Shown here: one piece after another, positions 4,320-56,577 of the stretch
How positions within the stretch are numbered: the stretch's first letter is position 1
How the letters are laid out: each line of letters begins with the position of its first letter
Source: a virus
IMG/VR virus record: IMGVR_UViG_3300047510_002187
Location: 31,073 to 95,072 of that record
Direction: 5' to 3' (one strand)
DNA length: 64,000 nucleotides
Translations under genes and position numbers: made by a program
Notes under the pieces: generated by a model
The model's input: only the letters and a program-made list of their open reading frames with translations
Databases searched by the model: none
What the model was told of the DNA's origin: nothing

Positions 4320-4547
4320 ATGACTGAACAACGCAAACTATGTAAAGATTGTCTCTATTATGAGAAAAGTTGGTTAGGACATCTTTTTGGGAGCAACTCA
4401 CTTGATAAATGTTACAACCCAATCATAACTGGTGATATGGTGACTGGAGACAAAAAAGGTAAGTTGTGTAAAGATGCTAGAGAATATGAGATGTATTGTG
4501 GTAGAAATGGTAGGTATTTTGAACAACTATGGGGGGATAGGAAATGA
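4320..4547 (+). CDS. Cys-rich small protein (MTEQRKLCKDC...), paralog of 23088-23332
   Basis: Start revised to the ATGACTGAA after the promoter leader; shared LCKDC..Y....C...TG.V....LC...YCG pattern. Confidence 0.45.
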   Translation: MTEQRKLCKDCLYYEKSWLGHLFGSNSLDKCYNPIITGDMVTGDKKGKLCKDAREYEMYCGRNGRYFEQLWGDRK

Positions 4548-4801
4548 CCGACAAACACCTTCTACAAAAATCTGCAGGAAAGGCAGGTGAAATATTAGGT
4601 CTCATTCAGTGGTATGATGACTTAAAGTTTCTTCTCATTTGGTCTCAACTTTCTAATCTAATGGGACACGACGAAGTTTTAATGCACCACTGGATGCAAA
4701 CACCAAATAAACATCTGGATGGTAAGGTTCCTGCAAATCTTATTACCACTGATAAAGGCACAGAACAACTTCTTTCACTTCTTGATTATTATTCCCAATG
4801 A
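4544..4801 (+). CDS. hypothetical protein
   Basis: ORF track, ATGA-coupled. Confidence 0.35.
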   Translation: MTDKHLLQKSAGKAGEILGLIQWYDDLKFLLIWSQLSNLMGHDEVLMHHWMQTPNKHLDGKVPANLITTDKGTEQLLSLLDYYSQ

Positions 4802-41633: not shown

Positions 41634-42020
41634 ATGTTTTCCATTGAAGAGTCTGAACTGATGATTGGTCTTATTGATCTCTTTGACAATAAGAATCTGG
41701 GTATTATGTTCAATGGTAAGAATGAACAGCTTGCCATTTCCATCAAAAGGAAACTGAATGAGCATAAGGAATCAGAAGAGACTAAGAGAATGAATCTCTT
41801 CTATTCTTATGTGTTCAGTTTCTATGGTAAGAGTGGCATCTATGATATGGGTGCAACAATGGATCAGATCATGGAAGCAACAGCAAAATATCTTAAGACT
41901 GAGAATGTTGACTTCTGTGGTGATTCTTACGATAGGGAAATAGTGAGGGATGTTATGATTCGTGATTATGGTCTTGTACCAGTTTCCAAACTGGCACATA
42001 AGACTCCACAAGCATCCTGA
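41634..42020 (+). CDS. hypothetical protein
   Basis: ORF track. Confidence 0.4.
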   Translation: MFSIEESELMIGLIDLFDNKNLGIMFNGKNEQLAISIKRKLNEHKESEETKRMNLFYSYVFSFYGKSGIYDMGATMDQIMEATAKYLKTENVDFCGDSYDREIVRDVMIRDYGLVPVSKLAHKTPQAS

Positions 42021-42056
42021 TCTCTGTTATCTTATTACTGTTCACATCAGAACCTC

Positions 42057-42317
42057 ATGAAAACCATTAAACTTCACCCGGAGAAAAGCATTCGCTGCAC
42101 TGAAAATGCCTTGATGTGGTGTAGTGTCCTGAATCATTACAGGAAAGAACATCCTAAAGCATCCTTCCGGGAAATGGGAGAGCAGTTTGGTATGACTGAA
42201 ACCAATGCACGCCGTTATTATTATGGCATTCATCATTACAATTCTGGATATGATGGTAAGAACCCGTATAATACATACACTCAACTAAGAAAAGGTGCAT
42301 GTGTTCAGATTGCCTGA
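42057..42317 (+). CDS. possible HTH DNA-binding protein
   Basis: FREMGEQFGMTETNARRYYYG resembles a helix-turn-helix. Confidence 0.3.
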   Translation: MKTIKLHPEKSIRCTENALMWCSVLNHYRKEHPKASFREMGEQFGMTETNARRYYYGIHHYNSGYDGKNPYNTYTQLRKGACVQIA

Positions 42318-42475
42318 TATGAATGAGTTGGGTTATTATACCCAACTCTTTTTTTATATTCTTATGATTATTATTAAGCAGGGTAAGTTACGACTGTTTA
42401 CATCATAAGTCCTACCCCAGACCTCATCAGATTATGTGTATATCATAAGGGATCTGATGTCTGATGGGGTGATCA

Positions 42476-42700
42476 GTGGTCAGATTGTTCAGTGGCACAA
42501 GGGGTATTGTGTGGTTGGGTTCTGATGGGGTATATTTGATTCGTCCGCAAATCACCGACATGGACCCATTTGTTGCTGAACAGCAGATTGAAGAAGTCAT
42601 TCCTTATGATTGGGATGATGAAGAAACTAAGTTTGAAGTGGAAGATTATTATGATGATCTTGCCGCTGGTCTTCCCCTTGATTCCTCTTACGAATTCTGA
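42476..42700 (+). CDS. hypothetical acidic protein (start uncertain; alternative M at about 42560)
   Basis: ORF track. Confidence 0.3.
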   Translation: MVRLFSGTRGIVWLGSDGVYLIRPQITDMDPFVAEQQIEEVIPYDWDDEETKFEVEDYYDDLAAGLPLDSSYEF

Positions 42701-42888
42701 TGATGCCTGACACTCTTGATTTCACTGGTAATGCTGTTACCATCCTTGGGTTTATTGGTGTTCTTTCAACGGGTATTATTCTGGTCACTTCTTTTAGGAG
42801 GTTTTTTAACAGTCCTTATAATCTCCGTGTGCCACCTGTGAAACCGTCCACTGATGAGACTGTGACCACCGAATCTGAAGTATCCTGA
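42700..42888 (+). CDS. small membrane protein
   Basis: ORF track. Confidence 0.3.
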   Translation: MMPDTLDFTGNAVTILGFIGVLSTGIILVTSFRRFFNSPYNLRVPPVKPSTDETVTTESEVS

Positions 42889-42934
42889 TTCTGTTCAGAA
42901 GTTCCATGATCTTCTTGGGGATTCTTATGCTGTA

Positions 42935-43132
42935 GTGGTCAATGATACCCTTTACTATGTTGGGTATGAAACTGAAGGTAATCCTTACATTTCTGATAAT
43001 GATGGTGGGCATTATGTTGATCTTAGTGTTGTTGATGGTGACATTGAGATTGACAGATGTTCTGTTTTCTTCACTGTCAATGGTGAACCTATCAGAATGC
43101 AGTTTCTTGAGATCATGGATCTTAAGGTGTGA
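42935..43132 (+). CDS. hypothetical protein
   Basis: ORF track. Confidence 0.3.
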   Translation: MVNDTLYYVGYETEGNPYISDNDGGHYVDLSVVDGDIEIDRCSVFFTVNGEPIRMQFLEIMDLKV

Positions 43133-43140
43133 CACATAAG

Positions 43141-43187
43141 AAACTGGCACATCAGACTTGACATAAGATCCTGATGTGCTGTAAGAT
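43141..43187 (+). promoter_or_regulatory. composite promoter: aaaCTGGCACA box plus TTGACA-18-TAAGAT
   Basis: Both promoter classes overlap here, at the left edge of the GC-rich island. Confidence 0.45.
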
Positions 43188-43245
43188 TTGATAGTCCTGA
43201 GTAAGACTATAAACTGCACACATCAGAAAACCCTTTGTTTTTATT

Positions 43246-43407
43246 ATGAACTTCACCATTGCTGAGATCATGCTTAACCAGTGTAACACTGGTAACGACA
43301 TTCTCTCTGTGCTTGATAGCATCGCGGAAGATATGAATGAGGAAACTGAAGGCGGCGAACTTGTCGCTGCAGGTACAACTACTGAAACTGATTACATTGA
43401 CTTTTGA
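43246..43407 (+). CDS. hypothetical acidic small protein (54 aa)
   Basis: Hand-translated. Confidence 0.3.
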   Translation: MNFTIAEIMLNQCNTGNDILSVLDSIAEDMNEETEGGELVAAGTTTETDYIDF

Positions 43408-43661
43408 GTATGAATATGATTGTTATTAACCGCACATTTACAACTGAAGAATCTGAGGCGATTGCTAGCATTAGTGCTACCAGTCAGTCTGATCGGGTAG
43501 AACTTGCCTATCAGACCAATCCCGACAAAAGTTACACCTATGTCAGCACTTCTGGCAGTTTCGTAACTAAACTTAACGACACTCTTGCGCAGGGTGCTAG
43601 CGTTGGTTCGCTTGTCTTTAATGCTCGCCGTTCCGGTGAACTGAAGGAAGCGACAGTCTGA
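43404..43661 (+). CDS. hypothetical protein (GC-rich island)
   Basis: ORF track. Confidence 0.4.
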   Translation: MSMNMIVINRTFTTEESEAIASISATSQSDRVELAYQTNPDKSYTYVSTSGSFVTKLNDTLAQGASVGSLVFNARRSGELKEATV

Positions 43662-43670
43662 CACTTTGAC

Positions 43671-43716
43671 AGGTGGCACAAGGGCACTTGATTCCGGTCA
43701 GGTGCCCTGTTACATT
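43671..43716 (+). promoter_or_regulatory. promoter cassette (gTGGCACA, GC-rich hairpin agggcac/gtgccct, TACATT)
   Basis: Island version of the cassette. Confidence 0.4.
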
Positions 43717-43740
43717 TACATCGTTCACCACTGAACTCTC

Positions 43741-44025
43741 ATGACTCGCTCCGAACAGATCCGCGAACTCTTTTCTACTCTAGGTTCTACCATTGTTTCT
43801 GTAGAGTTTGTGAAGCGTGATGGTACGCTTCGGAAGATTCGTTTTAATCCTAAAGATCGCCAGGAGATTGTGGGCACTGGTCGCCCTAGCAATAATCCTG
43901 ACATCTTCCGTGTTCGCGACTTTGATGTTGCGAAACGTGACGGAATCGGTGCATGGCGTTCCTTTGACGCTAACCGTGTGCGTCGGATTGCCTACCGTGG
44001 TCAAGTGCTGAACTGGACGGTCTGA
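43741..44025 (+). CDS. hypothetical protein (94 aa)
   Basis: ORF track. Confidence 0.45.
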   Translation: MTRSEQIRELFSTLGSTIVSVEFVKRDGTLRKIRFNPKDRQEIVGTGRPSNNPDIFRVRDFDVAKRDGIGAWRSFDANRVRRIAYRGQVLNWTV

Positions 44026-44027
44026 CC

Positions 44028-44073
44028 ACTGGCACAAGGGCACTCGCAAGGGTGCCCTCTCACCCCTTATACT
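44028..44073 (+). promoter_or_regulatory. promoter cassette (CTGGCACA, hairpin gggcac/gtgccc, TATACT, leader caagtcaacggg)
   Basis: Island version of the cassette. Confidence 0.45.
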
Positions 44074-44097
44074 GATCAAGTCAACGGGATTCCTCCG

Positions 44098-44853
44098 ATG
44101 CTGAACTTCTCCAAAGGCAACGCCAAACTTGGCACTCACACGCTGATCTTCAACCTGCCTGCAGGTAAGACATGCCCCGGTGCAATGTTTTGCAAGTCTT
44201 TTGCTGTCGTTGGTGACGACGGAAAGCGTAGGATTGTTGATGGCGAACACACTGAGTTTCGGTGTTTCGCTGCATCTTCTGAGGTGCAGTATGATGCTGT
44301 CTTCAACAATCGCGCCCGCAATCTGGAGTTGATTGTTGATGCTCTGCAGAACGGAACTGTCCCAGGTTACTCTGTCAGTGCTGCGGATCTTATCCACGAC
44401 AGCATCCAACATCATCGCACTAAGAAAACAGAATTGGTGCGCATTCATGAGTCTGGAGACTTCTTCTCTGGTGCGTATCTTGACGCATGGATTGAGGTTG
44501 CCCATCGCAATCCTGATCTTAAGTTCTACTGCTACTCTAAGAGTCTGCGGTTGTTTCTTAACTTCAAGTTGCCCAGTAACTTCTACATGACCGCATCGTA
44601 TGGTGGTCGGTTTGATTACCTGATCGACGAAGGTTACTTCCCACGTTATAGCAAAGTCTGCATGAATGATGCGGACGCTGAACGTCTGGGTCTGGAAGTT
44701 GACCACGATGATTCACACTGCTTCGGTGATAAACCGTTCGCTTTGCTTGTGCATGGCACGCAACCGAAAGGTTCAGAATGGGGCGCCGCAATCCGTGCCC
44801 GTCGTTCTAACAAACAGTTCGGAGGTTACAGTAAGAAAACTGTGACGGTCTGA
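44098..44853 (+). CDS. conserved-looking Cys-rich protein (251 aa), function unknown
   Basis: N-terminal SKGNAKLG...TCPGAMFC motif. Confidence 0.45.
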   Translation: MLNFSKGNAKLGTHTLIFNLPAGKTCPGAMFCKSFAVVGDDGKRRIVDGEHTEFRCFAASSEVQYDAVFNNRARNLELIVDALQNGTVPGYSVSAADLIHDSIQHHRTKKTELVRIHESGDFFSGAYLDAWIEVAHRNPDLKFYCYSKSLRLFLNFKLPSNFYMTASYGGRFDYLIDEGYFPRYSKVCMNDADAERLGLEVDHDDSHCFGDKPFALLVHGTQPKGSEWGAAIRARRSNKQFGGYSKKTVTV

Positions 44854-44855
44854 CC

Positions 44856-44900
44856 ACTGGCACACTAGGGGGTGACAGGATCACCCCCATGCCCTACAAT
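44856..44900 (+). promoter_or_regulatory. promoter cassette (CTGGCACA, hairpin gggggtgac/atcaccccc, TACAAT) with leader tctcagttcaccacagaac
   Basis: Island version of the cassette. Confidence 0.45.
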
Positions 44901-44925
44901 TCTCTCAGTTCACCACAGAACTCCC

Positions 44926-45084
44926 ATGGCAAAACTCTTTAAGATCGCCAAGTTTGAGAACGAAAACTTCAAGATTCTGGAAACTTTCGGCACCTATGAT
45001 GATGCTGATGATCGGTATGATTATTGGGCAGAACGCTATCCTAACGCATGGGTAGAGATCTTAGACCCAACCGATGAAGTCTGA
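44926..45084 (+). CDS. hypothetical small protein (52 aa; start revised)
   Basis: First ATG after the conserved leader; the track's 5' extension covers the promoter. Confidence 0.4.
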   Translation: MAKLFKIAKFENENFKILETFGTYDDADDRYDYWAERYPNAWVEILDPTDEV

Positions 45085-45093
45085 TTCTTATAA

Positions 45094-45120
45094 AGAACCC
45101 TTCGGGGTTCTTTTTTATTC
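45094..45120 (+). terminator. rho-independent terminator
   Basis: gaacccc-ttcg-ggggttc followed by T6. Confidence 0.65.
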
Positions 45121-45139
45121 TTTTGTAATAATTATAATA

Positions 45140-45300
45140 AAGAAGGGTAAGTGGCGACCTTTTATGTCATCAGAGCGACCCTGCTCCTCATTCCGTTGTC
45201 CCCATAGTATAGGGCATGATGGGGGTCTGCTGTGCCACCTGAGGACGGTTTGGGCAGTGGCACAATCCTGGTTGCTGGGGTGGGTTCCCCCGTGGCATAC
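45140..45300 (+). repeat. conserved non-coding element, copy A (divergent)
   Basis: agggtaagtg...tcatca...ccgttgtccccatagtatagggcatgatgggg...ggtctgctgtgcca...gtttggg shared with copies at 46600, 47540 and 49020. Confidence 0.4.
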
Positions 45301-45361
45301 TATGTGCATCGGCGGGAGGGAAACACCCCGACCGCCAGCAAACCCAATCCCAGAGTCTACC

Positions 45362-45889
45362 ATGCCTGCCGCCACTGCTCTCAACTTTGACGGTTTCAAC
45401 GACGATCAGATGCGTGCCCTTATGGTGCTCATGCAGCAACACATGGAGCAGCGTAAGGTTTCTTTTGATGATCAGGTTTCTTCTGTTCAGCAACAGCGTT
45501 ATGATGAGCGCATGAAAGAAATCGGACAAAATGTTGCTGTGATTGAAACAACGAACGCAGCGTTTGAGGTTTGCCTGAATGAGATCCTGGGCGACATTGA
45601 TGAGTCGCGTTGGATTGTTTCTCAACTTGACAAGTGCCGCCGGATGAATGACTTCCGCCACTTCATCCCCGTTTACTTCAAGTATCGCGGAAAGGATCTT
45701 AAGATCGAAGAACTGTTGCGCACTCTTGCCGCAATCTATCGCCTCAAAATGAAGAACTATAATAATCCTGCAGATAAGTCCAAGGATCGTGCTATCGTTC
45801 GGCATGAAATCCGTTGCCCTCACTGTGGCGAATACGCTACACGTTTGGTGGAGTATCTTGAGATCAAGGGCATCCGTTGGGCGGACTGA
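45362..45889 (+). CDS. hypothetical protein with a C-terminal CPHCGEY zinc ribbon
   Basis: Start at the ATG after the cassette; the track's 5' extension covers non-coding sequence. Confidence 0.45.
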   Translation: MPAATALNFDGFNDDQMRALMVLMQQHMEQRKVSFDDQVSSVQQQRYDERMKEIGQNVAVIETTNAAFEVCLNEILGDIDESRWIVSQLDKCRRMNDFRHFIPVYFKYRGKDLKIEELLRTLAAIYRLKMKNYNNPADKSKDRAIVRHEIRCPHCGEYATRLVEYLEIKGIRWAD

Positions 45890-45900
45890 GATAAGGAATA

Positions 45901-45925
45901 GGGGGCAATCTTATGCCCCCTTTCC
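45901..45925 (+). terminator. rho-independent terminator
   Basis: gggggc-aatcttat-gccccc followed by tttcc. Confidence 0.5.
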
Positions 45926-45954
45926 TATCATAAGAGATCCTTATCAGAAAACCC

Positions 45955-45981
45955 TTGACATAAGATCCCACACCGTATAAG
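45955..45981 (+). promoter_or_regulatory. sigma70-like promoter TTGACA-15-TATAAG preceded by CATAAGAGATCC
   Basis: Shares ttgacataagatcc with 43158. Confidence 0.4.
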
Positions 45982-46009
45982 ATTATCTCAGTTCACCACC
46001 TGAACCACA

Positions 46010-46198
46010 ATGTCTCTCACACAACTGGTAAGAACTTACGCAACTTGCTGTAAGTTGGAAGACAAAGATAAAGATCCAAAGGATCAAATCTCCTGGGTTC
46101 TTTACAATCATCAGGAAATGGTTTTGATTCATGGTCAACCTCAGATTCTAAAGTCTTGGGAGATTGCTGGAGCGTTTCGGAGACTGTTTGCAAAGTGA
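46010..46198 (+). CDS. hypothetical protein (62 aa)
   Basis: Follows the leader tctcagttcaccacctgaaccacaATG. Confidence 0.45.
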   Translation: MSLTQLVRTYATCCKLEDKDKDPKDQISWVLYNHQEMVLIHGQPQILKSWEIAGAFRRLFAK

Positions 46199-46260
46199 CC
46201 ACCAAAGGGGACCGGGAACGGTCCCCATGCCCTAGAATCCTCTCAGTTCACCACTGAACC

Positions 46261-46404
46261 ATGCGACGCCTCCCTAACATCCTCCTGATCGGTTCCCTGC
46301 TCTACATTGGCAGCGGTCTGGGTTTGTCTGCCCTTCAGGTTGCCAAGGCACATGCCGACCGGGTTGCTGTTACGATCTGTGAAGCATCCCGCGACTGCCG
46401 CTGA
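46261..46404 (+). CDS. small secreted/membrane peptide (47 aa)
   Basis: Hand-translated after the leader ctctcagttcaccactgaaccATG; hydrophobic N-terminus. Confidence 0.35.
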   Translation: MRRLPNILLIGSLLYIGSGLGLSALQVAKAHADRVAVTICEASRDCR

Positions 46405-46444
46405 TCGTCTGCTACACTATCTGCAGTTCACCACCGAACCTCTC

Positions 46445-46564
46445 ATGATCTTTGATCTGAAACAGCAAATTGAAGAGCAAGGATACATCATTATCAGCGA
46501 CATGAGCGATGATGAACTTGCCGAACTCTTCCAAGTTATGATAAACGACGAAGAGGAATCATGA
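46445..46564 (+). CDS. acidic mini-protein (39 aa)
   Basis: Follows the leader ctgcagttcaccaccgaacctctcATG; the track's 5' extension is rejected. Confidence 0.3.
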   Translation: MIFDLKQQIEEQGYIIISDMSDDELAELFQVMINDEEES

Positions 46565-46570
46565 ATAATT

Positions 46571-46598
46571 GGGAGAGGCAAATCCTCTCCCTTTTTTT
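46571..46598 (+). terminator. rho-independent terminator
   Basis: gggagagg-caaat-cctctccc followed by T7. Confidence 0.65.
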
Positions 46599-46599
46599 A

Positions 46600-46760
46600 T
46601 ACTTTTGTTGTTATTATTTGCGTGCAGGGTAAGTGTCTTGTTTTGTATCATCACGGCGCCCCCGTTCGTTTCATTGTCCCCATAGTATAAGGCATGGATG
46701 GGGTCAGGTGTGGGGTCTGGTGTGCCAGTTTGGGAACTGGTCAGGAGTGGTTGCCTGGTG
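46600..46760 (+). repeat. conserved non-coding element, copy B
   Basis: tatactt...cagggtaagtgtcttgttttgtatcatcacggcgcccccgttc...gtccccatagtataaggcatggatgggg. Confidence 0.45.
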
Positions 46761-46803
46761 GCATCCCATGCCCTATGATTCTTTCAGTTCACACGAACAC
46801 CCC

Positions 46804-47109
46804 ATGCTTTCCAGCATCATCCGCACCAGCATCCGCTCCCACCTGATTCAGACCGGTTCTAAGACCTGCTCCGAACTGGTGCGGGATCTGGGACTGGACC
46901 CGAAGCGTCACAAGGGCACCATCCATGCCCTGATGGTGGACATGGAGGATGCAGGCATCCTGAGCGCCACCCGTAGCGCCAATGGCAAGCGTCACAAGTG
47001 GGAAATGGTTCCCACCGCGATCCGCAAGCGGGACCGCCTGGTCGCTGCTATCCTGGTCCGGTCTGACCAATCCGACCAATCCGACCAATCCGACCAATCC
47101 GACAACTGA
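46804..47109 (+). CDS. winged-helix/HTH-like putative transcription regulator with a C-terminal (SDQ)x4 repeat
   Basis: TCSELVRDLGLDPKRHKGTIHALMVDMEDAGIL; start after the conserved leader. Confidence 0.4.
   Translation: MLSSIIRTSIRSHLIQTGSKTCSELVRDLGLDPKRHKGTIHALMVDMEDAGILSATRSANGKRHKWEMVPTAIRKRDRLVAAILVRSDQSDQSDQSDQSDN
47065..47100 (+). repeat. 9-bp tandem repeat gaccaatcc x4
   Basis: Direct reading; encodes SDQSDQSDQSDQ. Confidence 0.8.
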
Positions 47110-47177
47110 CACACCGGGGGGTTGCGAAACCCCCCCTCCCCCTGCTATCTTAGATCTGTTCCTGAGGGATTCACCCC

Positions 47178-47498
47178 ATGCGAGTCATCGAACGCAAAAT
47201 GAACAAAGCGATTTCCAATCGTTACGATTGGAAATCTGCAAACACTCGTGTAGAGTATGAAGCAGGAAATGAGATCTCACGAGTGTTTCTTTATGGAAAC
47301 CTGATCGCTGAGATTGGAGAAGGTTTCCTGAAACTTTATGATGGCGGACATCAGACAACCACCACAAAGTCCCGCCTGAATGCTATTCTTTCTGAGAATG
47401 GTTGCGGTGATAAGAAAGTCTATCAGAAAGACTTTCAATGGAAGATCAAACATGATGGAATTGTGGAGGATTTTGTATCAGGAATGATTCTTCGCTGA
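47178..47498 (+). CDS. hypothetical protein
   Basis: ORF track. Confidence 0.4.
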   Translation: MRVIERKMNKAISNRYDWKSANTRVEYEAGNEISRVFLYGNLIAEIGEGFLKLYDGGHQTTTTKSRLNAILSENGCGDKKVYQKDFQWKIKHDGIVEDFVSGMILR

Positions 47499-47507
47499 TT
47501 ATAACTT

Positions 47508-47536
47508 ATGGGGGCAGAAATGCCTCCATTTTTTTA
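47508..47536 (+). terminator. rho-independent terminator
   Basis: gggggca-gaaa-tgcctcc followed by T7. Confidence 0.6.
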
Positions 47537-47539
47537 TAC

Positions 47540-47700
47540 TTAAGATCCTATTATTTACGAGCAGGGTAAGTGTCTTGTTTTGTATCATCGCGGCGCCCCC
47601 GCTCTTCTTCGCTTGTGAGACAATCATAGCACCCCATCAGACCCCAGCGTGGCATCAGGTGGACAGTCTGAGCGGTGGCACAAGACCCCTTGGCAGGATG
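47540..47700 (+). repeat. conserved non-coding element, copy C
   Basis: tatactt...gagcagggtaagtgtcttgttttgtatcatcgcggcgcccccgctcttcttc. Confidence 0.45.
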
Positions 47701-47768
47701 CCTCCCTGTCGGTTATGGTAGTTTCAACGACGGGCACCGCTCTACATTCCCCCCCGTCGCCTAAGATC

Positions 47769-48098
47769 ATGAACTCCCCCGCCTTCCCCCCCGCTGATGC
47801 TCTGATCGCTCATCTTAAGAGCATTAACTATCAGAAACATTTCAACAACTACATGGACACGGTAGAAACCGTGTGCCTCACAATCGCCGCCATTGTTTAT
47901 GTCATCTTCAAGAAAACACAAGAATGGTATCAGAATGGTGGCAAAGATGCTACCCTTCAGATTATCAAGAAAGTTTGGAACTTTCTTTCAGTTTCTTATA
48001 CTTGGGTGCGCTGTGAGGTTTATCCTGCAGTGATTAAGTTTCTGGAGAATGTGTCAGAAACTTATGGCGCCTGGCGTGACCTTGTGACAGTCGCCTAG
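47769..48098 (+). CDS. membrane protein (1 TM), start revised
   Basis: TVCLTIAAIVYVIF hydrophobic segment. Confidence 0.4.
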   Translation: MNSPAFPPADALIAHLKSINYQKHFNNYMDTVETVCLTIAAIVYVIFKKTQEWYQNGGKDATLQIIKKVWNFLSVSYTWVRCEVYPAVIKFLENVSETYGAWRDLVTVA

Positions 48099-48163
48099 GT
48101 GTCCACTGGGGGCAGCGATCCTGCCCTCTCATGCCCTACACTGTATCCAGTCGCAACCAACCC

Positions 48164-48337
48164 ATGCAGACACCGATGAGGATTGAGGTTCGCTATCAAG
48201 TCCCCTACGGGGACTGCCAGTGGCGCTCCCAGTGGTTCCCCACTGTTCAGGAGGCGCAGCGTATGGTAGGATTTTATCGCTCCTGCGGATCGCCCGCCCA
48301 CATCGCCCCCAGCAGCATGGCACAGTTCCAACGCTGA
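48164..48337 (+). CDS. hypothetical small protein
   Basis: Start after the leader. Confidence 0.35.
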   Translation: MQTPMRIEVRYQVPYGDCQWRSQWFPTVQEAQRMVGFYRSCGSPAHIAPSSMAQFQR

Positions 48338-48384
48338 AACTGTCACAAGGGGGGACACCGATCCCCCCTCCCATGCCCTACAAT
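48338..48384 (+). promoter_or_regulatory. promoter cassette (aaaCTGTCACA, hairpin gggggga/tcccccc, TACAAT, leader tctttcagttcaccacccgaac)
   Basis: Island version of the cassette. Confidence 0.45.
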
Positions 48385-48412
48385 TCTTTCAGTTCACCAC
48401 CCGAACCGCACC

Positions 48413-48661
48413 ATGTTCTCCACTCTCACCTTCCGCGATCATAGTCTCAAAGGTGCTACAATCGCTCAGCGTACCTTTGACAATGGTTGGGGAGTTTCTG
48501 TAGTTTCTGGACCCGAAGGTTCCGGTCTTAAGGGTACAATCGGGCAGGATACTTTTGAGGTGGCAATTATACGCCCAAGCGGCAACATGCTGGATGAAAT
48601 TATGCCATGGCAGACTCCGGTGCAGGTATCCAGTCTCATGCGCCTAGTTTCCATGCTGTGA
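48413..48661 (+). CDS. hypothetical protein
   Basis: ORF track. Confidence 0.4.
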   Translation: MFSTLTFRDHSLKGATIAQRTFDNGWGVSVVSGPEGSGLKGTIGQDTFEVAIIRPSGNMLDEIMPWQTPVQVSSLMRLVSML

Positions 48662-48671
48662 CGGTTTGTGA

Positions 48672-48717
48672 ACCTGCACAAGGGGAGGCGACAGGATGCC
48701 TCCCCATGCCCTACAAT
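48672..48717 (+). promoter_or_regulatory. promoter cassette (CTGCACA variant, hairpin gggaggc/gcctccc, TACAAT)
   Basis: Leader gacaagtcaaccaaaggg. Confidence 0.4.
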
Positions 48718-48745
48718 GGACAAGTCAACCAAAGGGAGAACCCCG

Positions 48746-48967
48746 ATGACCCAGATCACCACTGAGACCTGCTTTGATGATGCCAACTTCCCCGCCTGGT
48801 GGAACGAAGCATACGACTACATCATGGGCGATAGTTACATCGAGCACATCATGGGATGCCCCGATGATGGTTGGTGCCTTGATTGTCTGGTTGATTCCTA
48901 CAACAAAGGGATGACACCTAGCGCCGCTGTCAATGAAGCGGTGGACGGTTACGATCCCACCCCCTGA
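48746..48967 (+). CDS. hypothetical Cys-containing protein
   Basis: Start after the leader. Confidence 0.4.
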   Translation: MTQITTETCFDDANFPAWWNEAYDYIMGDSYIEHIMGCPDDGWCLDCLVDSYNKGMTPSAAVNEAVDGYDPTP

Positions 48968-48976
48968 GTATAATCA

Positions 48977-49004
48977 ACCGGAGGCAGAAATGCCTCCTTT
49001 TTTT
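48977..49004 (+). terminator. rho-independent terminator
   Basis: ggaggca-gaaa-tgcctcc followed by T7. Confidence 0.65.
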
Positions 49005-49019
49005 ATACTTTATGAACCA

Positions 49020-49110
49020 TTATTTGCAGGCAGGGTAGGTTACTTGTTTTGTATCATCGCGGCGCCCCCGCTCTTCTTCCGTTGTGTCCATAGTCTAGCG
49101 CATCATGGGC
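49020..49110 (+). repeat. conserved non-coding element, copy D
   Basis: caggcagggtaggttacttgttttgtatcatcgcggcgcccccgctcttcttccgttgtgtccatagtctagcgcatcatgggcg. Confidence 0.45.
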
Positions 49111-49222
49111 GCCACCGTGGCATTGTGACTCATTGTGACTGATAAGCGTTGCTGATCGTTCGGGGGTTGACGCGGGCACCGATCCGTGGGATTCTATAGG
49201 GGTCAACACGCGACACTCCGCT

Positions 49223-49411
49223 ATGGCACTCAACATCACCCCCCGCTTCTACGCCCGCCTGCAGCACGGGTTCTCAATGGAGGCGAAGTTTGAGACCCCG
49301 ACGATGGCAGCGGCGGCAGCAACCGCCCTCGCTCCTGTTCTGGGGTATCTCCCGGTTGTAGAGTGCTACGTCAACGGTCAGTGGATCCGGTATGATCAGA
49401 TGACCGCCTGA
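49223..49411 (+). CDS. hypothetical protein
   Basis: ORF track. Confidence 0.35.
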   Translation: MALNITPRFYARLQHGFSMEAKFETPTMAAAAATALAPVLGYLPVVECYVNGQWIRYDQMTA

Positions 49412-49445
49412 GATCCTCTAGGGGACCCACAGCGGGTCCCCCGCC

Positions 49446-49670
49446 ATGCTACGATCCACAAGCAATCAACGCACCGCCATGATCATCCGCACGCCCAGCA
49501 TCCTGCGCCGCGCTTTCTACGTTTCGATCAACACCCGCGCCCGCCTGCGGGATGAGGTGCTCGCCGTGAGCATCGGCAGCGCCTACCTGGGCGTCAACCG
49601 CCTGAGCGATTCCGACATCGGCGGGTTTGAAATCGTCTGGGGCATCCTGCCGGATTCCGAGGCATTGTGA
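49446..49670 (+). CDS. hypothetical protein
   Basis: Follows the cassette (TACGAT). Confidence 0.35.
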   Translation: MLRSTSNQRTAMIIRTPSILRRAFYVSINTRARLRDEVLAVSIGSAYLGVNRLSDSDIGGFEIVWGILPDSEAL

Positions 49671-49742
49671 ACAAAGGTTACGGGGCACCCTCCGGGGTGC
49701 CCTCCGCCATGCTACAATTCCAGAGTCAACCGCAAGCGAACC

Positions 49743-49952
49743 ATGATCGCCAACCACGCCACCGCCGCCGACTTTACCCGCTGGGAGGCGCGAGCGAAGA
49801 CGATGAGCGACGAAGAGCTGCTCTACAGCGCCCGTGACGCCCGCCAGGCGGAGGCGGCTATGCGCGGGTGGAACCCGATCGCTGAGGGACGCTACAGCGA
49901 CGAGGCGTGTACCTACGGCGACGAACTGCGCCGCCGCCGTGCCAATCGGTGA
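49743..49952 (+). CDS. hypothetical protein
   Basis: Follows the cassette (TACAAT, leader agagtcaaccgcaag). Confidence 0.4.
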   Translation: MIANHATAADFTRWEARAKTMSDEELLYSARDARQAEAAMRGWNPIAEGRYSDEACTYGDELRRRRANR

Positions 49953-50209
49953 GGTGTCCATCGGGGATCGGCAACGGTCCCCCCATCCTGTAGACTGAGA
50001 GGACAACAGGGAGAGGGGCAGGGTCGCCCCGATGACGCAAAAGGTCGCCACTTCCCCTGCCTGCCTTTAATGGTTAAATCTTCACCTAGAACTTTCAGGA
50101 AACTTTCACCTAACCCTCACCCTACGGGCGTCCGATGGTCCCCCCGATCCTGTACACTTCTATCAAGCGCAACGGGGCAGCGCACGAATGCCCCACCGGT
50201 TCCAGGGTT

Positions 50210-50509
50210 ATGACTACCGCCACCGTTCTCTCCGGCGCCTTCTATCGCACCTTCAGCGAGGCGGAGAGCAGCGCGATCCGCAACCTGCACGTCGAACCCG
50301 GCAGCGTGCTCACGGGCGCCCCTGGGTTCGTTGAGGTGATCTTCCACCGCAACCCGACCCGCGCCTACGGGTTCGACGCCGACCCCGCCTTTACGGCGGA
50401 TCTGTTTGACGTTCTCGGGTACACTGACCTGCGAGGCGAGTCGCTGGGGCGGATGATCGCCCGCGCTCGCCAGGATGGGCGCCTGCAGGCGATCCCTGAG
50501 GAAGTGTGA
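50210..50509 (+). CDS. hypothetical protein (MTTATVLSG...), shares its leader and N-terminus with 50607
   Basis: About 70 nt upstream plus the first codons are duplicated at 50540-50625. Confidence 0.4.
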   Translation: MTTATVLSGAFYRTFSEAESSAIRNLHVEPGSVLTGAPGFVEVIFHRNPTRAYGFDADPAFTADLFDVLGYTDLRGESLGRMIARARQDGRLQAIPEEV

Positions 50510-50606
50510 ACGATTGTAACGGGCACCCTCCGGGGTGCCCCGCGATCGTCTAGGATGTCATCAAGCGCAACGGGGGAGCGCCGAATCCCCCACCGGTTCC
50601 AGGGTT

Positions 50607-51356
50607 ATGACTACCGCCACCACCGCCCGCCATAACGAAACTGACGCCCTGCTGGAGCGGGTGCTGCGCGGTCTGCACGGTACTAATCCTCAGGCGGCAG
50701 CTAATCTTGAGCACGATCTGGCGCAGTGTGAGGATCGTAAAGTGCAGCAGTTTAGTGTAACAACCCGCCGCGACGGTTTGATTAACTTTACCTCTGATCT
50801 GAGTGATGCTGAGGTGCTGCAATCCCTTCGCGGTCAGCGTTCACAATTTGCACAAGATCTTGCCGCTAAGTTTAATCGTCTGAGCGCATCTCAGTATGCC
50901 TGGGCACATAAACTTGCCGTGGATAATGTTAAAAAGCAGCAGAATGTTGCTAAGGTGAATGATGCTGACCTCTCCATGTTTGAGGCACTGTTTAATGCTT
51001 TCGAGGCAGCACGTAGCAAGGGTGCTAAGCGTTTGACCCTGCGATTCGCCGGGGTTAATGTGAAACCCAACCGCGACATGTCTGCGCTGTGGGTTACATC
51101 TCAGACTGAGACTGAGGAAGGGAACTACGGAATCCAACCCAAGTACCTGGGTAAAGTTACCCGAAAGGCGCTGGATTCGCGCCTGCCCGATGATGTCAAA
51201 GCGATCATCATGGCGGCAGCGTCCGATCCCCTCACCGCAGCGATTCGCTACGGTAAGGTATCCGGGGAGTGCTCATGCTGTGGGCGGGAACTAACGAATC
51301 CGGAGAGCATTGAGCGGGGGATTGGTCCTATCTGTGCCGACAAGTTCGGATGGTGA
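50607..51356 (+). CDS. hypothetical protein (250 aa) with a C-terminal CSCCGRELTNPESIERGIGPICADKFGW motif
   Basis: Start at MTTATTAR after the duplicated leader. Confidence 0.45.
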   Translation: MTTATTARHNETDALLERVLRGLHGTNPQAAANLEHDLAQCEDRKVQQFSVTTRRDGLINFTSDLSDAEVLQSLRGQRSQFAQDLAAKFNRLSASQYAWAHKLAVDNVKKQQNVAKVNDADLSMFEALFNAFEAARSKGAKRLTLRFAGVNVKPNRDMSALWVTSQTETEEGNYGIQPKYLGKVTRKALDSRLPDDVKAIIMAAASDPLTAAIRYGKVSGECSCCGRELTNPESIERGIGPICADKFGW

Positions 51357-51364
51357 GGTATACC

Positions 51365-51393
51365 GGGGGAGGGACAGTCTCTCCCCCTTTCTC
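51365..51393 (+). terminator. rho-independent terminator at the right edge of the GC-rich island
   Basis: gggggaggg-acagtct-ctccccc followed by tttctct, then TATACTT as at the other island terminators. Confidence 0.55.
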
Positions 51394-51555
51394 TATACTT
51401 TATGTGTACGTGCTAAATGACACCTATTAACCGTGCTTATCGACAGTATGCCGATGGATAAGGGCGCCTTATGGGTCGCGCCTAGCGATTGAAAAACGTT
51501 CAACTACCCTAATCTATAACAACTCTGACCCACGCTAGTTCTATAAGACTCACAA

Positions 51556-51957: not shown

Positions 51958-52010
51958 CAAGTCCCTATATAGACTGTTATAATCAGTTTGAGGTTTGTTA
52001 AAAAAATTTG

Positions 52011-52487
52011 ATGAATTTATTGGAAAAATTTTCCAAGTATCTTCCAGATATACTTGATGATAATGAATGTTGGGAATGGCAAGGAAAAATTGATGCTCAT
52101 GGTTATGGGTACATTTGCAGAAACAAAAAAACTTTAAAGGCGCATAGAATTTCTTATGAAATTCATTATGCAGAACCTTTGGGAAATCTCCACTGTCTTC
52201 ATAGATGTGATAATCCAAAGTGTGTTAATCCTTCACATTTGTTTTCTGGAACTAATCTTGATAATGTCAAAGATAAAGTCAATAAAGGAAGATGTTATAC
52301 TGGTAATCAAAAAGGCGAAAATAATGGGGCATCAAGATTAAAAAATACTGATGTAATCAGAATTAGACAACTATATAAATCGGATAATTATACAACTATT
52401 AAACTTGCGGAAATGTATAATGTGCATCGCTCTACAATTTCTTATGTTGTAAATAATAAAACTTTTAAACATTTATTAGAGGATTGA
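52011..52487 (+). CDS. HNH homing endonuclease
   Basis: CWEWQGKIDAHGYGY...AHRISYE...LHRCDNPKCVNPSHL..GTNLDN; track start at 52008 is a TTG. Confidence 0.75.
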   Translation: MNLLEKFSKYLPDILDDNECWEWQGKIDAHGYGYICRNKKTLKAHRISYEIHYAEPLGNLHCLHRCDNPKCVNPSHLFSGTNLDNVKDKVNKGRCYTGNQKGENNGASRLKNTDVIRIRQLYKSDNYTTIKLAEMYNVHRSTISYVVNNKTFKHLLED

Positions 52488-54253: not shown

Positions 54254-54655
54254 ATGCCTCTAGAGAGGGTAAGTAAAGGGTTCAAAGATATAAGTATGTC
54301 ATTTCAGGTTAATCCTCTGAATTATGATCTTGTGGCGCTCAGGAATGAATCTGCAATCGCAAGATCAGTGAGAAATCTTGTACTTACCCAACCTGGAGAA
54401 AAATTTTTCAATCAAAATTTAGGTTCTAGAGTTTCAAGATCACTTTTTGAAAATCTTGATGAAATTTCAGCATCTATAATCAAAGATGAGATTGAAAATA
54501 CTATTAAAAATTATGAACCAAGAGTCAATCTAATTGATGTTATCGTATCACCAGATTATGATAACGGCGAATTTAATGTGACAATACAGTATTTGATTGT
54601 TGGTATTGATGTATTACCGCAACAGTTATCCTTTGCACTTCAGCCAACCCGATAA
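54254..54655 (+). CDS. gp25: baseplate wedge protein gp25 homolog
   Basis: IKDEIENTIKNYEPRVNLIDVIV aligns with T4 gp25 VERNIESAVRNYEPRIDKLAVNVIP (exact NYEPR); about 130 aa. Confidence 0.85.
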   Translation: MPLERVSKGFKDISMSFQVNPLNYDLVALRNESAIARSVRNLVLTQPGEKFFNQNLGSRVSRSLFENLDEISASIIKDEIENTIKNYEPRVNLIDVIVSPDYDNGEFNVTIQYLIVGIDVLPQQLSFALQPTR

Positions 54656-56577
54656 TGGCATTAGTTAATTTCACAAACTTAGATTTTGATCAAATTAAAT
54701 CATCAATCCGCGAGTATTTGAGATCAAATTCAAATTTTACCGATTATGATTTTGAAGGATCAAATCTTTCTACAATTATAGATCTATTAGCATATAATAC
54801 CTATATCTCTTCATATAATGCTAATATGATTAGCAATGAAGTTTTTATTGATAGTGCCACTTTGCGTGAGAATGTTGTTTCATTAGCAAAGCATATTGGG
54901 TATACACCAAGATCCCGAACCTCCTCAAGAGCAAATATATCTTTTTTCGTAGATACTACAAGCATATCAACAGCAGAAACTGCGCCATTAACGGTTACTC
55001 TTCAAAAAGGATTGGTGTGTGTAAGTTCTGTTGCATCTAATGGTCAGAATTATACATTTTCAATTATTGAAGATATCACTGTTCCAGTAGTAAATGGAAT
55101 AGCCTTGTTTGATAATATCACGATTTACGAAGGTTCCTATGTAAATCAATCTTTCATTGTGGATGTAAATAATTCAGAACAAAAATTTATATTAAATAAT
55201 GCAAATATTGATACTTCAACTCTGTCAGTTAATATTAGAAATTCCCAAGAAAGTAGTATTATTAATAAATTTAACTTATGTGAAGACTTATGTGTAGTTA
55301 ATGATAAAAGTAGAGTATTTTTTCTACAAGAAATAGAAGATCAAAGATATGAAATTATATTTGGTGATGGAATATTTGGAAAAAAACTTGATAATTCAAA
55401 TGTAGTAGAAGTTACCTATATTGTATCAAACGGTGAAAGTTCTAATGGTATTGAATCATTTTCCTTTATAGGAAGACTAGTAGATAATAATGCTCGGGTA
55501 ATTGCATCAGGAGTATCTTTAATTAGTACCATTTCTCCATCTCAAGGTGGAAAAGAAATTGAATCAATAGATTCAATTAGAAAATATGCGCCTAGGTTAT
55601 ATTCTTCACAAAAAAGAGCCGTAACCTCTTCCGATTATGAAAATATTGTTACTATGCTGTACCCAGAAGCAGAATCTGTTTCTGTTTTTGGTGGTGAAGA
55701 ATTGGATCCTCCAAGATATGGAAAAGTCTTTATTACAATTAAACCTTTTGAAGGAGAGGTTCTTCCGGAAACAATTAAAGACAATCTTAAAAATTTATTA
55801 AGAAAATACAGTGTTGCTGGAATTGTTACTGAAATATTAGACTTAAAGTATCTTTATATTGAGTTTGACTCCTCTGTTTATTATAATACTAGTTTTTCAC
55901 AATCACCTTCAGACTTAAAAACTCAAATCTTAAACAATTTAATTAGATATTCAGATTCTACAGAATTGAATAAATATGGTGCTAGATTTAAATATAGTAA
56001 ATTTTTAAAAATAATTGATGAAACAAATAAGGCAATAACATCAAATATAACTAAAATTAATATGAGAAGAGATTTGAAAGTTTTGTTAAATCAATTTGCG
56101 GAGTATGAAATTTGTTTTGGTAATGGTTTCCACATTAAAAATGAAAGTGGTTATAATATAAAATCTTCATCTTTTGGGGTTTCTGGTATTTTAGAAGATT
56201 TATACTTATCAGACATACCAGATTCAAATAAAAAAACTGGAAGAATTATATTTTTCAAAATAAATATTGAAAATTCTTTGCCATATATTGTCAATCCGAA
56301 TGCAGGAAAAATTGATTATGAGAAGGGAGAGGTGATTATATATCCAGTAAATATCATAAGAGCAGGAAAAGAAAAGTTTAACAATCCTATTATAGAAATA
56401 TCTGCAATACCAAAATCAAATGATATAATTGGACTACAAGATTTATATTTACAACTAGATATCAATAATAGTATTATTAATATGATATCTGATCCAATTT
56501 CTTCCGGTTCCGATATATCCGGAACGATTTATAAAACAACATCAAGTTATTCTAACGGAAATTTTATAAGAAAGTAA
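54655..56577 (+). CDS. gp6: baseplate wedge protein gp6 homolog
   Basis: NFTDYDFEGSNLSTIIDLLAYNT matches T4 gp6 FLDYDFEGSRLNVLCDLLAYNT; 640 aa; TAATG coupling to gp25. Confidence 0.85.
   Translation: MALVNFTNLDFDQIKSSIREYLRSNSNFTDYDFEGSNLSTIIDLLAYNTYISSYNANMISNEVFIDSATLRENVVSLAKHIGYTPRSRTSSRANISFFVDTTSISTAETAPLTVTLQKGLVCVSSVASNGQNYTFSIIEDITVPVVNGIALFDNITIYEGSYVNQSFIVDVNNSEQKFILNNANIDTSTLSVNIRNSQESSIINKFNLCEDLCVVNDKSRVFFLQEIEDQRYEIIFGDGIFGKKLDNSNVVEVTYIVSNGESSNGIESFSFIGRLVDNNARVIASGVSLISTISPSQGGKEIESIDSIRKYAPRLYSSQKRAVTSSDYENIVTMLYPEAESVSVFGGEELDPPRYGKVFITIKPFEGEVLPETIKDNLKNLLRKYSVAGIVTEILDLKYLYIEFDSSVYYNTSFSQSPSDLKTQILNNLIRYSDSTELNKYGARFKYSKFLKIIDETNKAITSNITKINMRRDLKVLLNQFAEYEICFGNGFHIKNESGYNIKSSSFGVSGILEDLYLSDIPDSNKKTGRIIFFKINIENSLPYIVNPNAGKIDYEKGEVIIYPVNIIRAGKEKFNNPIIEISAIPKSNDIIGLQDLYLQLDINNSIINMISDPISSGSDISGTIYKTTSSYSNGNFIRK

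Follow-up and report, generated by a model that had tools for sequence, protein, structure and literature searches.

A multi-copy non-coding element with a covarying hairpin and a predicted reverse-strand promoter in the high-GC island of a T4-like phage: candidate cassette-linked small RNA genes

Multi-copy families of base-pairing small RNAs include Qrr1-5, the cyanobacterial Yfr2-5/Cyano-1 and the tandem arrays of NsiR1. Among cyanophages, S-PM2 reportedly encodes an antisense RNA, CfrI, and antisense RNAs reported genome-wide over genes of P-SSP7 are said to shield messenger RNA (mRNA) from host RNase E. A further kind of repeated intergenic module, the promoter-early stem-loop (PeSL), is known from coliphages and vibriophages of the T4 type and has been proposed to provide linkers for modular shuffling (Arbiol et al. 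2010, PMC2839356; Comeau et al. 2014, PMC4122927). Here we describe an element of about 73 nucleotides (nt), present in six copies in a window of 64,000 nt of viral DNA (positions 31,073 to 95,072 of the IMG/VR record IMGVR_UViG_3300047510_002187). The six copies, named c0 to c5, all fall inside an island rich in guanine plus cytosine (G+C), positions 42000-51400 of the window. We tentatively read them as candidate small RNA genes linked to gene cassettes.

The element resembles PeSLs in being a repeated, conserved intergenic module of hyperplastic regions, lying between small ORFans, and in combining a sigma-70-like promoter with a GC stem-loop or terminator. Its position-specific TAnnnT hexamer, often accompanied by TGn, appears to match the promoters of the island's genes, and this promoter type is supplied in the island by genuine PeSL-like units. 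It differs from PeSLs in that a GGGG..CCCC stem-loop stands directly upstream of the promoter only in inverted copies such as c5, whereas in c0 to c4 the terminator hairpin is on the other side, downstream of the putatively transcribed core. Moreover, the promoter of the element drives no open reading frame (ORF) and usually opposes the flanking genes, and about 73 nt of conserved non-coding sequence with a covarying hairpin lie between promoter and terminator. With the families of the Qrr, Yfr and NsiR1 type it shares the occurrence of several near-identical small genes per genome, sometimes in tandem and with their own (here predicted) promoters, and an invariant, apparently unpaired tract by a small hairpin with variable flanks. 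It is set apart from them by having no sequence or structure match to any Rfam family, and by copies that are tied to mobile phage cassettes and mostly antisense to the neighbouring genes. We would class the element as a variant form of mobile regulatory cassette, one that would carry a gene for a small non-coding RNA.

The copies were located in silico by running a covariance model, unfiltered, over the whole window. Exactly six sites were returned, with expectation values (E) of 6e-18 to 3e-10, and the next best match had E = 0.26. The 27-nt core occurred three times versus 0.00 expected. Copies c0 and c5 were found with a profile built from relatives. The original prediction, made from the letters of the window, had recognised four copies at about 45140, 46600, 47540 and 49020; the places are correct, and c0 and c5 bring the count to six. 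The sites are listed below, the extents of c1 to c4 in the orientation of that prediction.

42362-42434, minus strand: conserved non-coding core of c0, read 42434 to 42362, diverged and AT-richer (50.1 bits, E = 3e-10; nhmmer E = 3e-7); extent of this diverged copy, including terminator and -10 box, 42325-42447
45126-45198, minus strand: core of c1, type II, with the hairpin GAGC-AGGGUC-GCUC (62.7 bits, E = 1.5e-13); extent 45111-45270
46608-46679, minus strand: core of c2 (74.8 bits, E = 1e-16); extent 46593-46740
47545-47616, minus strand: core of c3 (79.5 bits, E = 6e-18); extent 47530-47690
49014-49085, minus strand: core of c4 (74.5 bits, E = 1.2e-16); extent 48999-49130
50004-50076, plus strand: core of c5, inverted, its putative RNA co-directional with the genes (55.5 bits, E = 1.1e-11); extent 49991-50076

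A conserved length of roughly 150 nt had been proposed. The part common to the whole family is about 73 nt plus the promoter box, and the segment ggtctgstgtgcca...gtttggg was found only in c1 and c2. As had been noticed, the flanking genes are unrelated to one another, being ORFans, and the element is more conserved than its neighbours: a 41-nt block is identical to the relative L001 (relatives are designated by L and a number), while the proteins encoded next to it, whose L001 homologues lie downstream of two copies, are 30% and 48% identical.

Three features define the element, namely a covarying GC hairpin of 4-5 base pairs (bp), a near-invariant tract of about 30 nt, and the hexamer TAnnnT on the reverse strand. 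In the orientation of the original prediction, the family-wide core reads TTATTT-N6-GCAGGGTRAGTG-N-C-NNG-NTTTGTRTCAT, followed by the short hairpin and a pyrimidine-rich run to TTGT, about 73 nt in all. On the reverse strand the tract lies 3' of the hairpin and reads GAUGAYACAAA-nCnrGnnACUYACCCUGC(C), being invariant or nearly so over some 30 nt. Part of it, ACUUACCCUG (for example 47560-47572), is like the 5' end of the eukaryotic U1 small nuclear RNA, and its complement, CAGGGTAAGT, is like the 5' splice-site consensus; both were taken as coincidence. The hairpins are as follows, with the evidence in brackets.

42407-42424, minus strand: hairpin of c0, AGGUC-UGGGGUAG-GACUU, five pairs including one G-U (listing, covariance model)
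45172-45187, minus strand: hairpin of c1, GGAGC-AGGGUC-GCUCU (listing, covariance model, covariation)
46653-46665, minus strand: hairpin of c2, ACGG-GGGCG-CCGU (listing, covariance model, covariation)
47590-47602, minus strand: hairpin of c3, GCGG-GGGCG-CCGC (listing, covariance model, covariation)
49059-49071, minus strand: hairpin of c4, GCGG-GGGCG-CCGC (listing, covariance model, covariation)
50015-50030, plus strand: hairpin of c5, GGGGC-AGGGUC-GCCCC (listing, covariance model)

Covariation was tested on a covariance-model alignment of 115 distinct sequences, with shuffles and slid partners as controls. Double changes were observed in 4 of the 4 hairpin pairs, and the number of double-change cells was 84 versus 42 in the shuffles. 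The covariation score was 0.417 versus 0.19, a value reached by none of 500 shuffles, and sliding the partner by 1-3 columns gave scores of 0.19 at most. Of the cells, 22% were scored as unpaired; they reflect shifts of register where the loop has 4 or 6 nt, and the hairpin still forms in these sequences. Such an alignment is fitted to the structure and hence biased toward the hairpin; a register-free listing of the stems agrees with it and contains more than 12 variants at one place, among them GCGG/CCGC, ACGC/GCGT, GCGT/ACGC, GCGC/GCGC, CCGG/CCGG, GAGG/CCTC, AGGC/GCCT, GGGC/GCCC, GTGC/GCAC and AGGT/ACCT. Within the window itself, a compensatory change from G-C to A-U separates the stem of c2 (ACGG/CCGT) from those of c3 and c4 (GCGG/CCGC). 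RNAalifold returned no structure on a plain MAFFT alignment, because differences in loop length shift the 4-bp stem out of register; the covariance-model alignment solved this problem.

The conserved stem had originally been sought in another place, a hairpin cccat-AGTATAgggcatg-atggg. Across 105 copies the longest pairing of its flanks equals the shuffled-flank distribution, and the piece corresponds to the -10 box of the predicted reverse-strand promoter with its flanks, the hexamer itself, which on the reverse strand is TATACT, TAGACT or TATGAT, being what is conserved. The covarying hairpin is the element GCGG-CGCCC-CCGC, which had been quoted only as the core. The proposed function at the RNA level is supported by the hairpin covariation, by the lack of a conserved ORF and by a conservation far above that of the neighbouring genes; the strand, the extent and the hairpin given with that proposal are not supported. 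A GCGGGG-CCCUGC helix is seen in single-sequence folds; as a family-wide long-range helix or pseudoknot, in which the 5' arm and loop (GCGGGG or GCAGGG) would pair with CCCUGC, it was rejected, the duplex energies being those of shuffled sequences (mean z = -0.16), and the 30-nt tract is therefore treated as unpaired. Type-II complementarity to the 23S ribosomal RNA segment GGGUAAGUUCCGACC, confirmed in Escherichia coli rrlH, was likewise no better than in shuffled sequences.

On the reverse strand, TAnnnT in a GC-rich context was present in 106 of 106 distinct copies, as TAGACT (44), TACAAT (15), TATACT (13), TAGGAT (10), TATGAT (6), TACAGT (6) and a few others, and TGn preceded it in 39 of them. 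Its distance upstream of a fixed reference point, placed 3' of the hairpin, is 21-26 nt in the short type and 41-61 nt in most of those members whose 5' segment is longer or additional. These 106 copies had been selected for the TAnnnT pattern. An unfiltered check was therefore provided by a MAFFT alignment of 49 upstream regions less than 90% identical, in which only the T, A and T of the hexamer were at least 90% conserved upstream of the hairpin (consensus gcTAgacT). Positions 1, 2 and 6 are thus fixed and positions 3-5 free, which is the signature of a bacterial -10 box. The predicted boxes in the window are listed here.

42442-42447, minus strand: -10 box TATGAT of c0 (top minus-strand score, 14.7, with the matrix of island gene promoters)
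45206-45211, minus strand: -10 box TATACT of c1, CATGCCC before it, start near 45199 (alignment and matrix)
46684-46689, minus strand: -10 box TATACT of c2 (alignment)
47623-47628, minus strand: -10 box TATGAT of c3, with TGC upstream (extended -10), predicted start near 47616 (alignment and matrix)
49092-49097, minus strand: -10 box TAGACT of c4, predicted start near 49085 (alignment and matrix)
49991-49996, plus strand: -10 box TAGACT of c5, with the hairpin GGGGATCGGCAACGGTCCCC (49963-49982) before it (sequence and matrix)

The box and its flanks, CATGCCC-TAnnnT-N6-8-ACAAC, agree with 12 gene promoters of the island; for instance, c1 has CATGCCC-TATACT-ATGGGG-ACAAC and the gene promoter at 48705 has CATGCCC-TACAAT-GG-ACAAGTCAAC. 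With a matrix built from these 12 promoters, four elements were among the top seven reverse-strand matches of the island. Inverted copies (c5, and those of L002, L072 and L090) take the place that a gene would have, immediately behind a stop codon and an entire unit of hairpin and promoter; the unit before c5 is a full promoter-plus-GC-stem-loop unit of the island's PeSL-like kind, and no terminator follows c5. The predicted RNA strand is 61% purine in all subfamilies (minimum 53%), and the hairpin loops are purine-rich on that strand. On this evidence we regard the element as probably a reverse-strand transcription unit. A palindromic motif, TGTGCCAC...GTGGCACA or TTGTGCCAGTT-N5-AACTGGCACAA, was observed between divergent promoters at 45228-45265 and in L005, L019, L052 and other relatives; in one subfamily it is a hairpin with T8 on the RNA strand, just upstream of the promoter of the unit. 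It might bind a protein or terminate transcription on the reverse strand.

At the other end of the unit, each of the four copies first recognised directly follows a terminator-like hairpin with a T-run, as had been described. The terminator hairpins, listed without a strand, are these.

42325-42348: upstream gene's terminator hairpin, which c0 abuts and shares
45092-45113: terminator hairpin abutting c1
46571-46591: terminator hairpin abutting c2
47508-47529: terminator hairpin abutting c3
48980-48997: terminator hairpin abutting c4

The TATACTT(T) that had been noted after the T-run is there and belongs to the A/U-rich spacer of the unit. In most of about 100 copies examined, a hairpin lies some 30 nt past the core. 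For the upstream gene it looks like an effective terminator, for the small unit like a weak one at most.

The explanation that we favour, while holding it tentatively, is that the element is a self-contained small non-coding RNA unit on the reverse strand, multi-copy and cassette-linked, whose product acts in trans. Transcription would start about 7 nt past the -10 box, at (G)ACAAC, from a promoter of host type (-10 TAnnnT, often with TGn) like those of the island's small genes. The RNA would then comprise a purine-rich stretch (GAAGAGGGAG), the GC hairpin of 4-5 bp with its purine loop, the near-invariant A/C-rich tract of about 30 nt, apparently unpaired, and an A/U-rich spacer (AAAUAAU...) with an A-run, before reaching the terminator hairpin of the convergent upstream gene. 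If it ended there, the product would be about 100-110 nt long. Its target, an RNA or a protein of the phage or the host, may be engaged by the invariant, apparently unpaired tract, and the gene would have many copies because one unit travels with each mobile gene cassette. Action in trans is favoured because the sequence constraint on the tract is independent of the neighbouring genes, and because inverted and tandem copies would be pointless unless the product acted elsewhere than at its own locus.

Several results weigh against this explanation. The -35 region is weak and unconserved. Hairpin energies are undecided between the strands (mean -6.2 versus -5.6 kcal/mol; 67 versus 46 copies), the counts of G-U versus A-C in the hairpin do not decide the strand, and the folding z-scores of the whole unit are similar on both; as these measures do not discriminate, the strand assignment was made on the promoter evidence. 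A U-tract (at least 5 U in 8 nt) follows the hairpin in 13 of 100 copies on the RNA strand versus 70 of 100 on the plus strand, which weakens the case for a discrete 3' end. Scans of both strands of the 64-kilobase (kb) window for near-complements and with RNAduplex gave no outlier target common to the copies. Finally, the identity among copies could come partly from recombination or gene conversion between cassettes and not from selection on an RNA.

The original prediction had placed the RNA on the plus strand, after the terminator, as a small RNA, a structured 5' leader or a processing signal. A conserved TAT about 10 nt before GCAGGG, which is TATTAT or TATAAT in many copies, is consistent with this, and the hairpin also folds on the plus strand and is more stable there in 46 of 114 copies; the z-scores are of no help in choosing. 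A plus-strand promoter in the AT-rich spacer was nevertheless rejected: TAnnnT at promoter distance was found in 57 of 91 copies versus 52 of 91 composition-matched shuffles, a chance level explained by the 86% A+T of the spacer upstream of GCAGGG. Besides, the downstream genes are mutually unrelated and have their own promoters beyond the element (46751-46779, 47690-47719), the stem-loop proposed with this model is not conserved, the core is pyrimidine-rich on the plus strand (about 39% purine), and the inverted c5 retains the reverse-strand promoter without the AT-rich spacer and terminator. A plus-strand RNA is therefore very unlikely in our judgement. Most likely it is the other strand that is transcribed, in which case the element would neither form the 5' untranslated region of the downstream gene nor signal the processing of the upstream mRNA.

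The rarity of the U-tract suits a different use of the same promoter, in which the 73 nt are the 5' leader of a long read-through antisense transcript over the upstream cassette. Through the boxB-like hairpin and the tract, the transcript would be stabilised or the polymerase made insensitive to terminators, and the mRNA of the cassette would be protected or silenced. This accounts for placement, orientation and the missing U-tract together: the unit adjoins the 3' side of the cassette and points into it in most copies, read-through is plausible where no U-tract stands at the hairpin in the RNA direction, and the conserved module lies exactly between promoter and terminator hairpin. The antisense RNAs of cyanophages, CfrI and those of P-SSP7, offer a likeness in their phage-encoded promoter against the coding strand; they are defined by overlap and are not known to have a conserved, repeated leader, whereas the element is a conserved module placed before unrelated upstream genes. 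The likeness to the lambda nut site (boxA/boxB) is one of form only, and consists in a GC hairpin with a purine loop of 4-6 nt, an adjacent linear tract and the placement between promoter and terminator. The element differs from nut in having no boxA-like consensus conserved in the alignment and in that its hairpin precedes the linear tract; no N-like or other antiterminator protein was identified, and no search for such a protein was made. The inverted copies such as c5, and the tandem copies of L016, 133 nt apart (4428-4499 and 4561-4632), would have no cassette to cover. On balance, the leader explanation seems to us rather unlikely, though it is the main alternative. In a still less likely form of it, each cassette would carry a portable antisense module of about 120 bp, made up of a promoter and a leader enabling transcription to pass the terminator, which would produce a cassette-wide antisense RNA and also serve as a homology linker for exchanging cassettes between phages. 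If this were true, the antisense RNA would shield the mRNA of the cassette from host RNase E or silence it at a set time, and the module would combine regulation with mobility.

Translation of a short peptide from the reverse-strand transcript was also considered, with the GGAG-like purine stretch, the hairpin and an AUG forming a ribosome-binding site for a minigene of 2-10 codons (M-I/T-Q-...). The bar minigenes of phage lambda, which read AUG AUA stop, offer a comparison. An ATG occurs 13-15 nt after the GGAG-like stretch in about 75% of the copies, and a 10-amino-acid frame MIQNK(T/S)LTLP recurs. A conserved micro-ORF was rejected all the same, for the ATG is absent in 26 of 106 copies, the frames range from 1 to 28 codons, and 23 of them stop after four. 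Nucleotides past the early stops are still conserved, and substitutions are mostly non-synonymous. We regard a minigene as highly improbable.

The distribution of the element was followed with motif scans of IMG/VR and metagenome contigs and then with profile and covariance-model searches. The family has at least 170 copies in at least 69 metagenomic and viral loci (452 kb in total). The densest locus among the matches listed is L051 (556-7857), with 9 units in 8 kb, one unit separating each single small gene or pair of genes from the next. A search of T4-like marine phages for the core had been suggested; it is answered by this large family in uncultured phage DNA and by the lack of any match to the element in cultured phages (megablast and blastn, three queries). 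Cultured phages also gave no match to a 651-amino-acid ORF. In bacterial genomes, one per species, the motif scan gave chance matches only, for example in Neisseria. An Rfam search had been suggested as well: Rfam 15 had no match at gathering threshold on either strand of the whole window, and on 44800-49400 at E up to 10 it gave noise only, none of it on the element. No transfer RNA or transfer-messenger RNA was found. In the literature searched (cyanophage repeats, small RNAs, motif strings) the element is not described, only the PeSL papers surfaced, and neither PeSLs in cyanophage-type genomes nor a cyanophage counterpart of the element was found. The RNA family thus appears to be undescribed.

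The window belongs to a T4-like myovirus, with a gp6 baseplate wedge gene at 54655-56577 (PHROG 219, E = 3e-195). Its nearest relatives are the Synechococcus phages B23 and B3 and the Prochlorococcus phage P-TIM68, with 55-59% amino-acid identity; no DNA match to the window was found among cultured phages. The G+C content is 27-36% over most of the window versus 43-58% in the island (42.0-51.4 kb), which was probably acquired from higher-GC cyanophages. The island is dense in small ORFans and also holds a GP88-family gene, a Kyanoviridae Gp96-family gene and a DUF6011 gene. Its left edge is copy c0, and its right edge is a remnant without the core.

51365-51400, plus strand: remnant made of a terminator and the spacer TATACTTTATG, which is also found beside c4 (sequence)

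An HNH homing-endonuclease ORF (52008-52487; HNH_3, E = 1.3e-5) lies immediately outside the right edge. Within the island, the 94-amino-acid ORF 43741-44025 weakly matches both WYL_2, an Sm-like SH3 barrel (E = 0.005, under the Pfam cutoff), and PHROG 2267; a possible reading is that it encodes an RNA-binding protein beside RNA cassettes. The 101-amino-acid ORF 46804-47109 ends in a DQS repeat, encoded by a 9-nt tandem repeat, CCAATCCGA x4, at 47067-47105, and the N-terminal part of its product resembles, as judged by eye, a winged-helix DNA-binding domain.

Nearly every ORF of the island is preceded by the same short module, and about 13 such PeSL-like units were counted in 43650-49730. The module consists of the preceding gene's stop codon in GTCTGA, CCACTGGCACAA, a GGGG..CCCC hairpin, CATGCCC-TAnnnT, a leader CAGTTCACCAC or CAAGTCAAC, and ATG. 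Examples are given below.

44843-44925: PeSL-like unit
48340-48412: PeSL-like unit
48656-48745: PeSL-like unit

This promoter and stem-loop module matches the PeSL cassettes of other T4-type phages (PMC2839356, PMC4122927). A second repeated leader, independent of the element, was observed before two neighbouring genes, which have in common 93 nt of upstream sequence (50131-50224, 50529-50621), including one 40-nt stretch that is 98% identical, as well as their first five codons (ATGACTACCGCCACC).

The window and L001 differ in cassette order: the arrangement of the 175-amino-acid and 101-amino-acid genes with respect to the GP88-like gene is swapped, and elements lie at the junctions. A Gp96-family gene is followed by a terminator and the element both in the window and in L002. 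The pattern fits a shuffling of cassettes with the element at the joints, as proposed for PeSLs. It would also suit an element that is mainly a PeSL-like shuffling linker at the DNA level, homogenised by recombination or gene conversion, whose transcript is incidental. The position at cassette junctions, the changed order, the bounding of the island by c0 and by the terminator-plus-spacer remnant and the abundance of PeSL-type units in it speak for such a linker, as does the recombination described in AT-rich parts of PeSL linkers (PMC2839356). Recombination alone, however, leaves two things unexplained, the compensatory changes by which more than 12 variants preserve a 4-bp stem and the near-invariance of a tract across subfamilies with diverged flanks; moreover, promoter and terminator functions need no 73 conserved nt between them. 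We therefore think a mainly DNA-level role quite unlikely, and retain the small trans-acting RNA as the explanation that we tentatively favour.

The hyperplastic regions of T4-like cyanophages are sites of gain and loss of accessory genes, and the regulation and movement of their cassettes are poorly understood. The element is a widespread non-coding module there, its 170 or more copies coming from a fairly small sample of environmental contigs. Should it prove to be a small RNA, it would rank among the most highly repeated phage-encoded RNA families known and would offer a way into phage-host RNA interactions in picocyanobacteria. Should it instead be a linker or antisense module, the concept of mobile regulatory cassettes that PeSLs represent would extend to cyanophages, with an RNA component added. 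On either reading, ACUUACCCUGC is a precise target for strand-specific probes.

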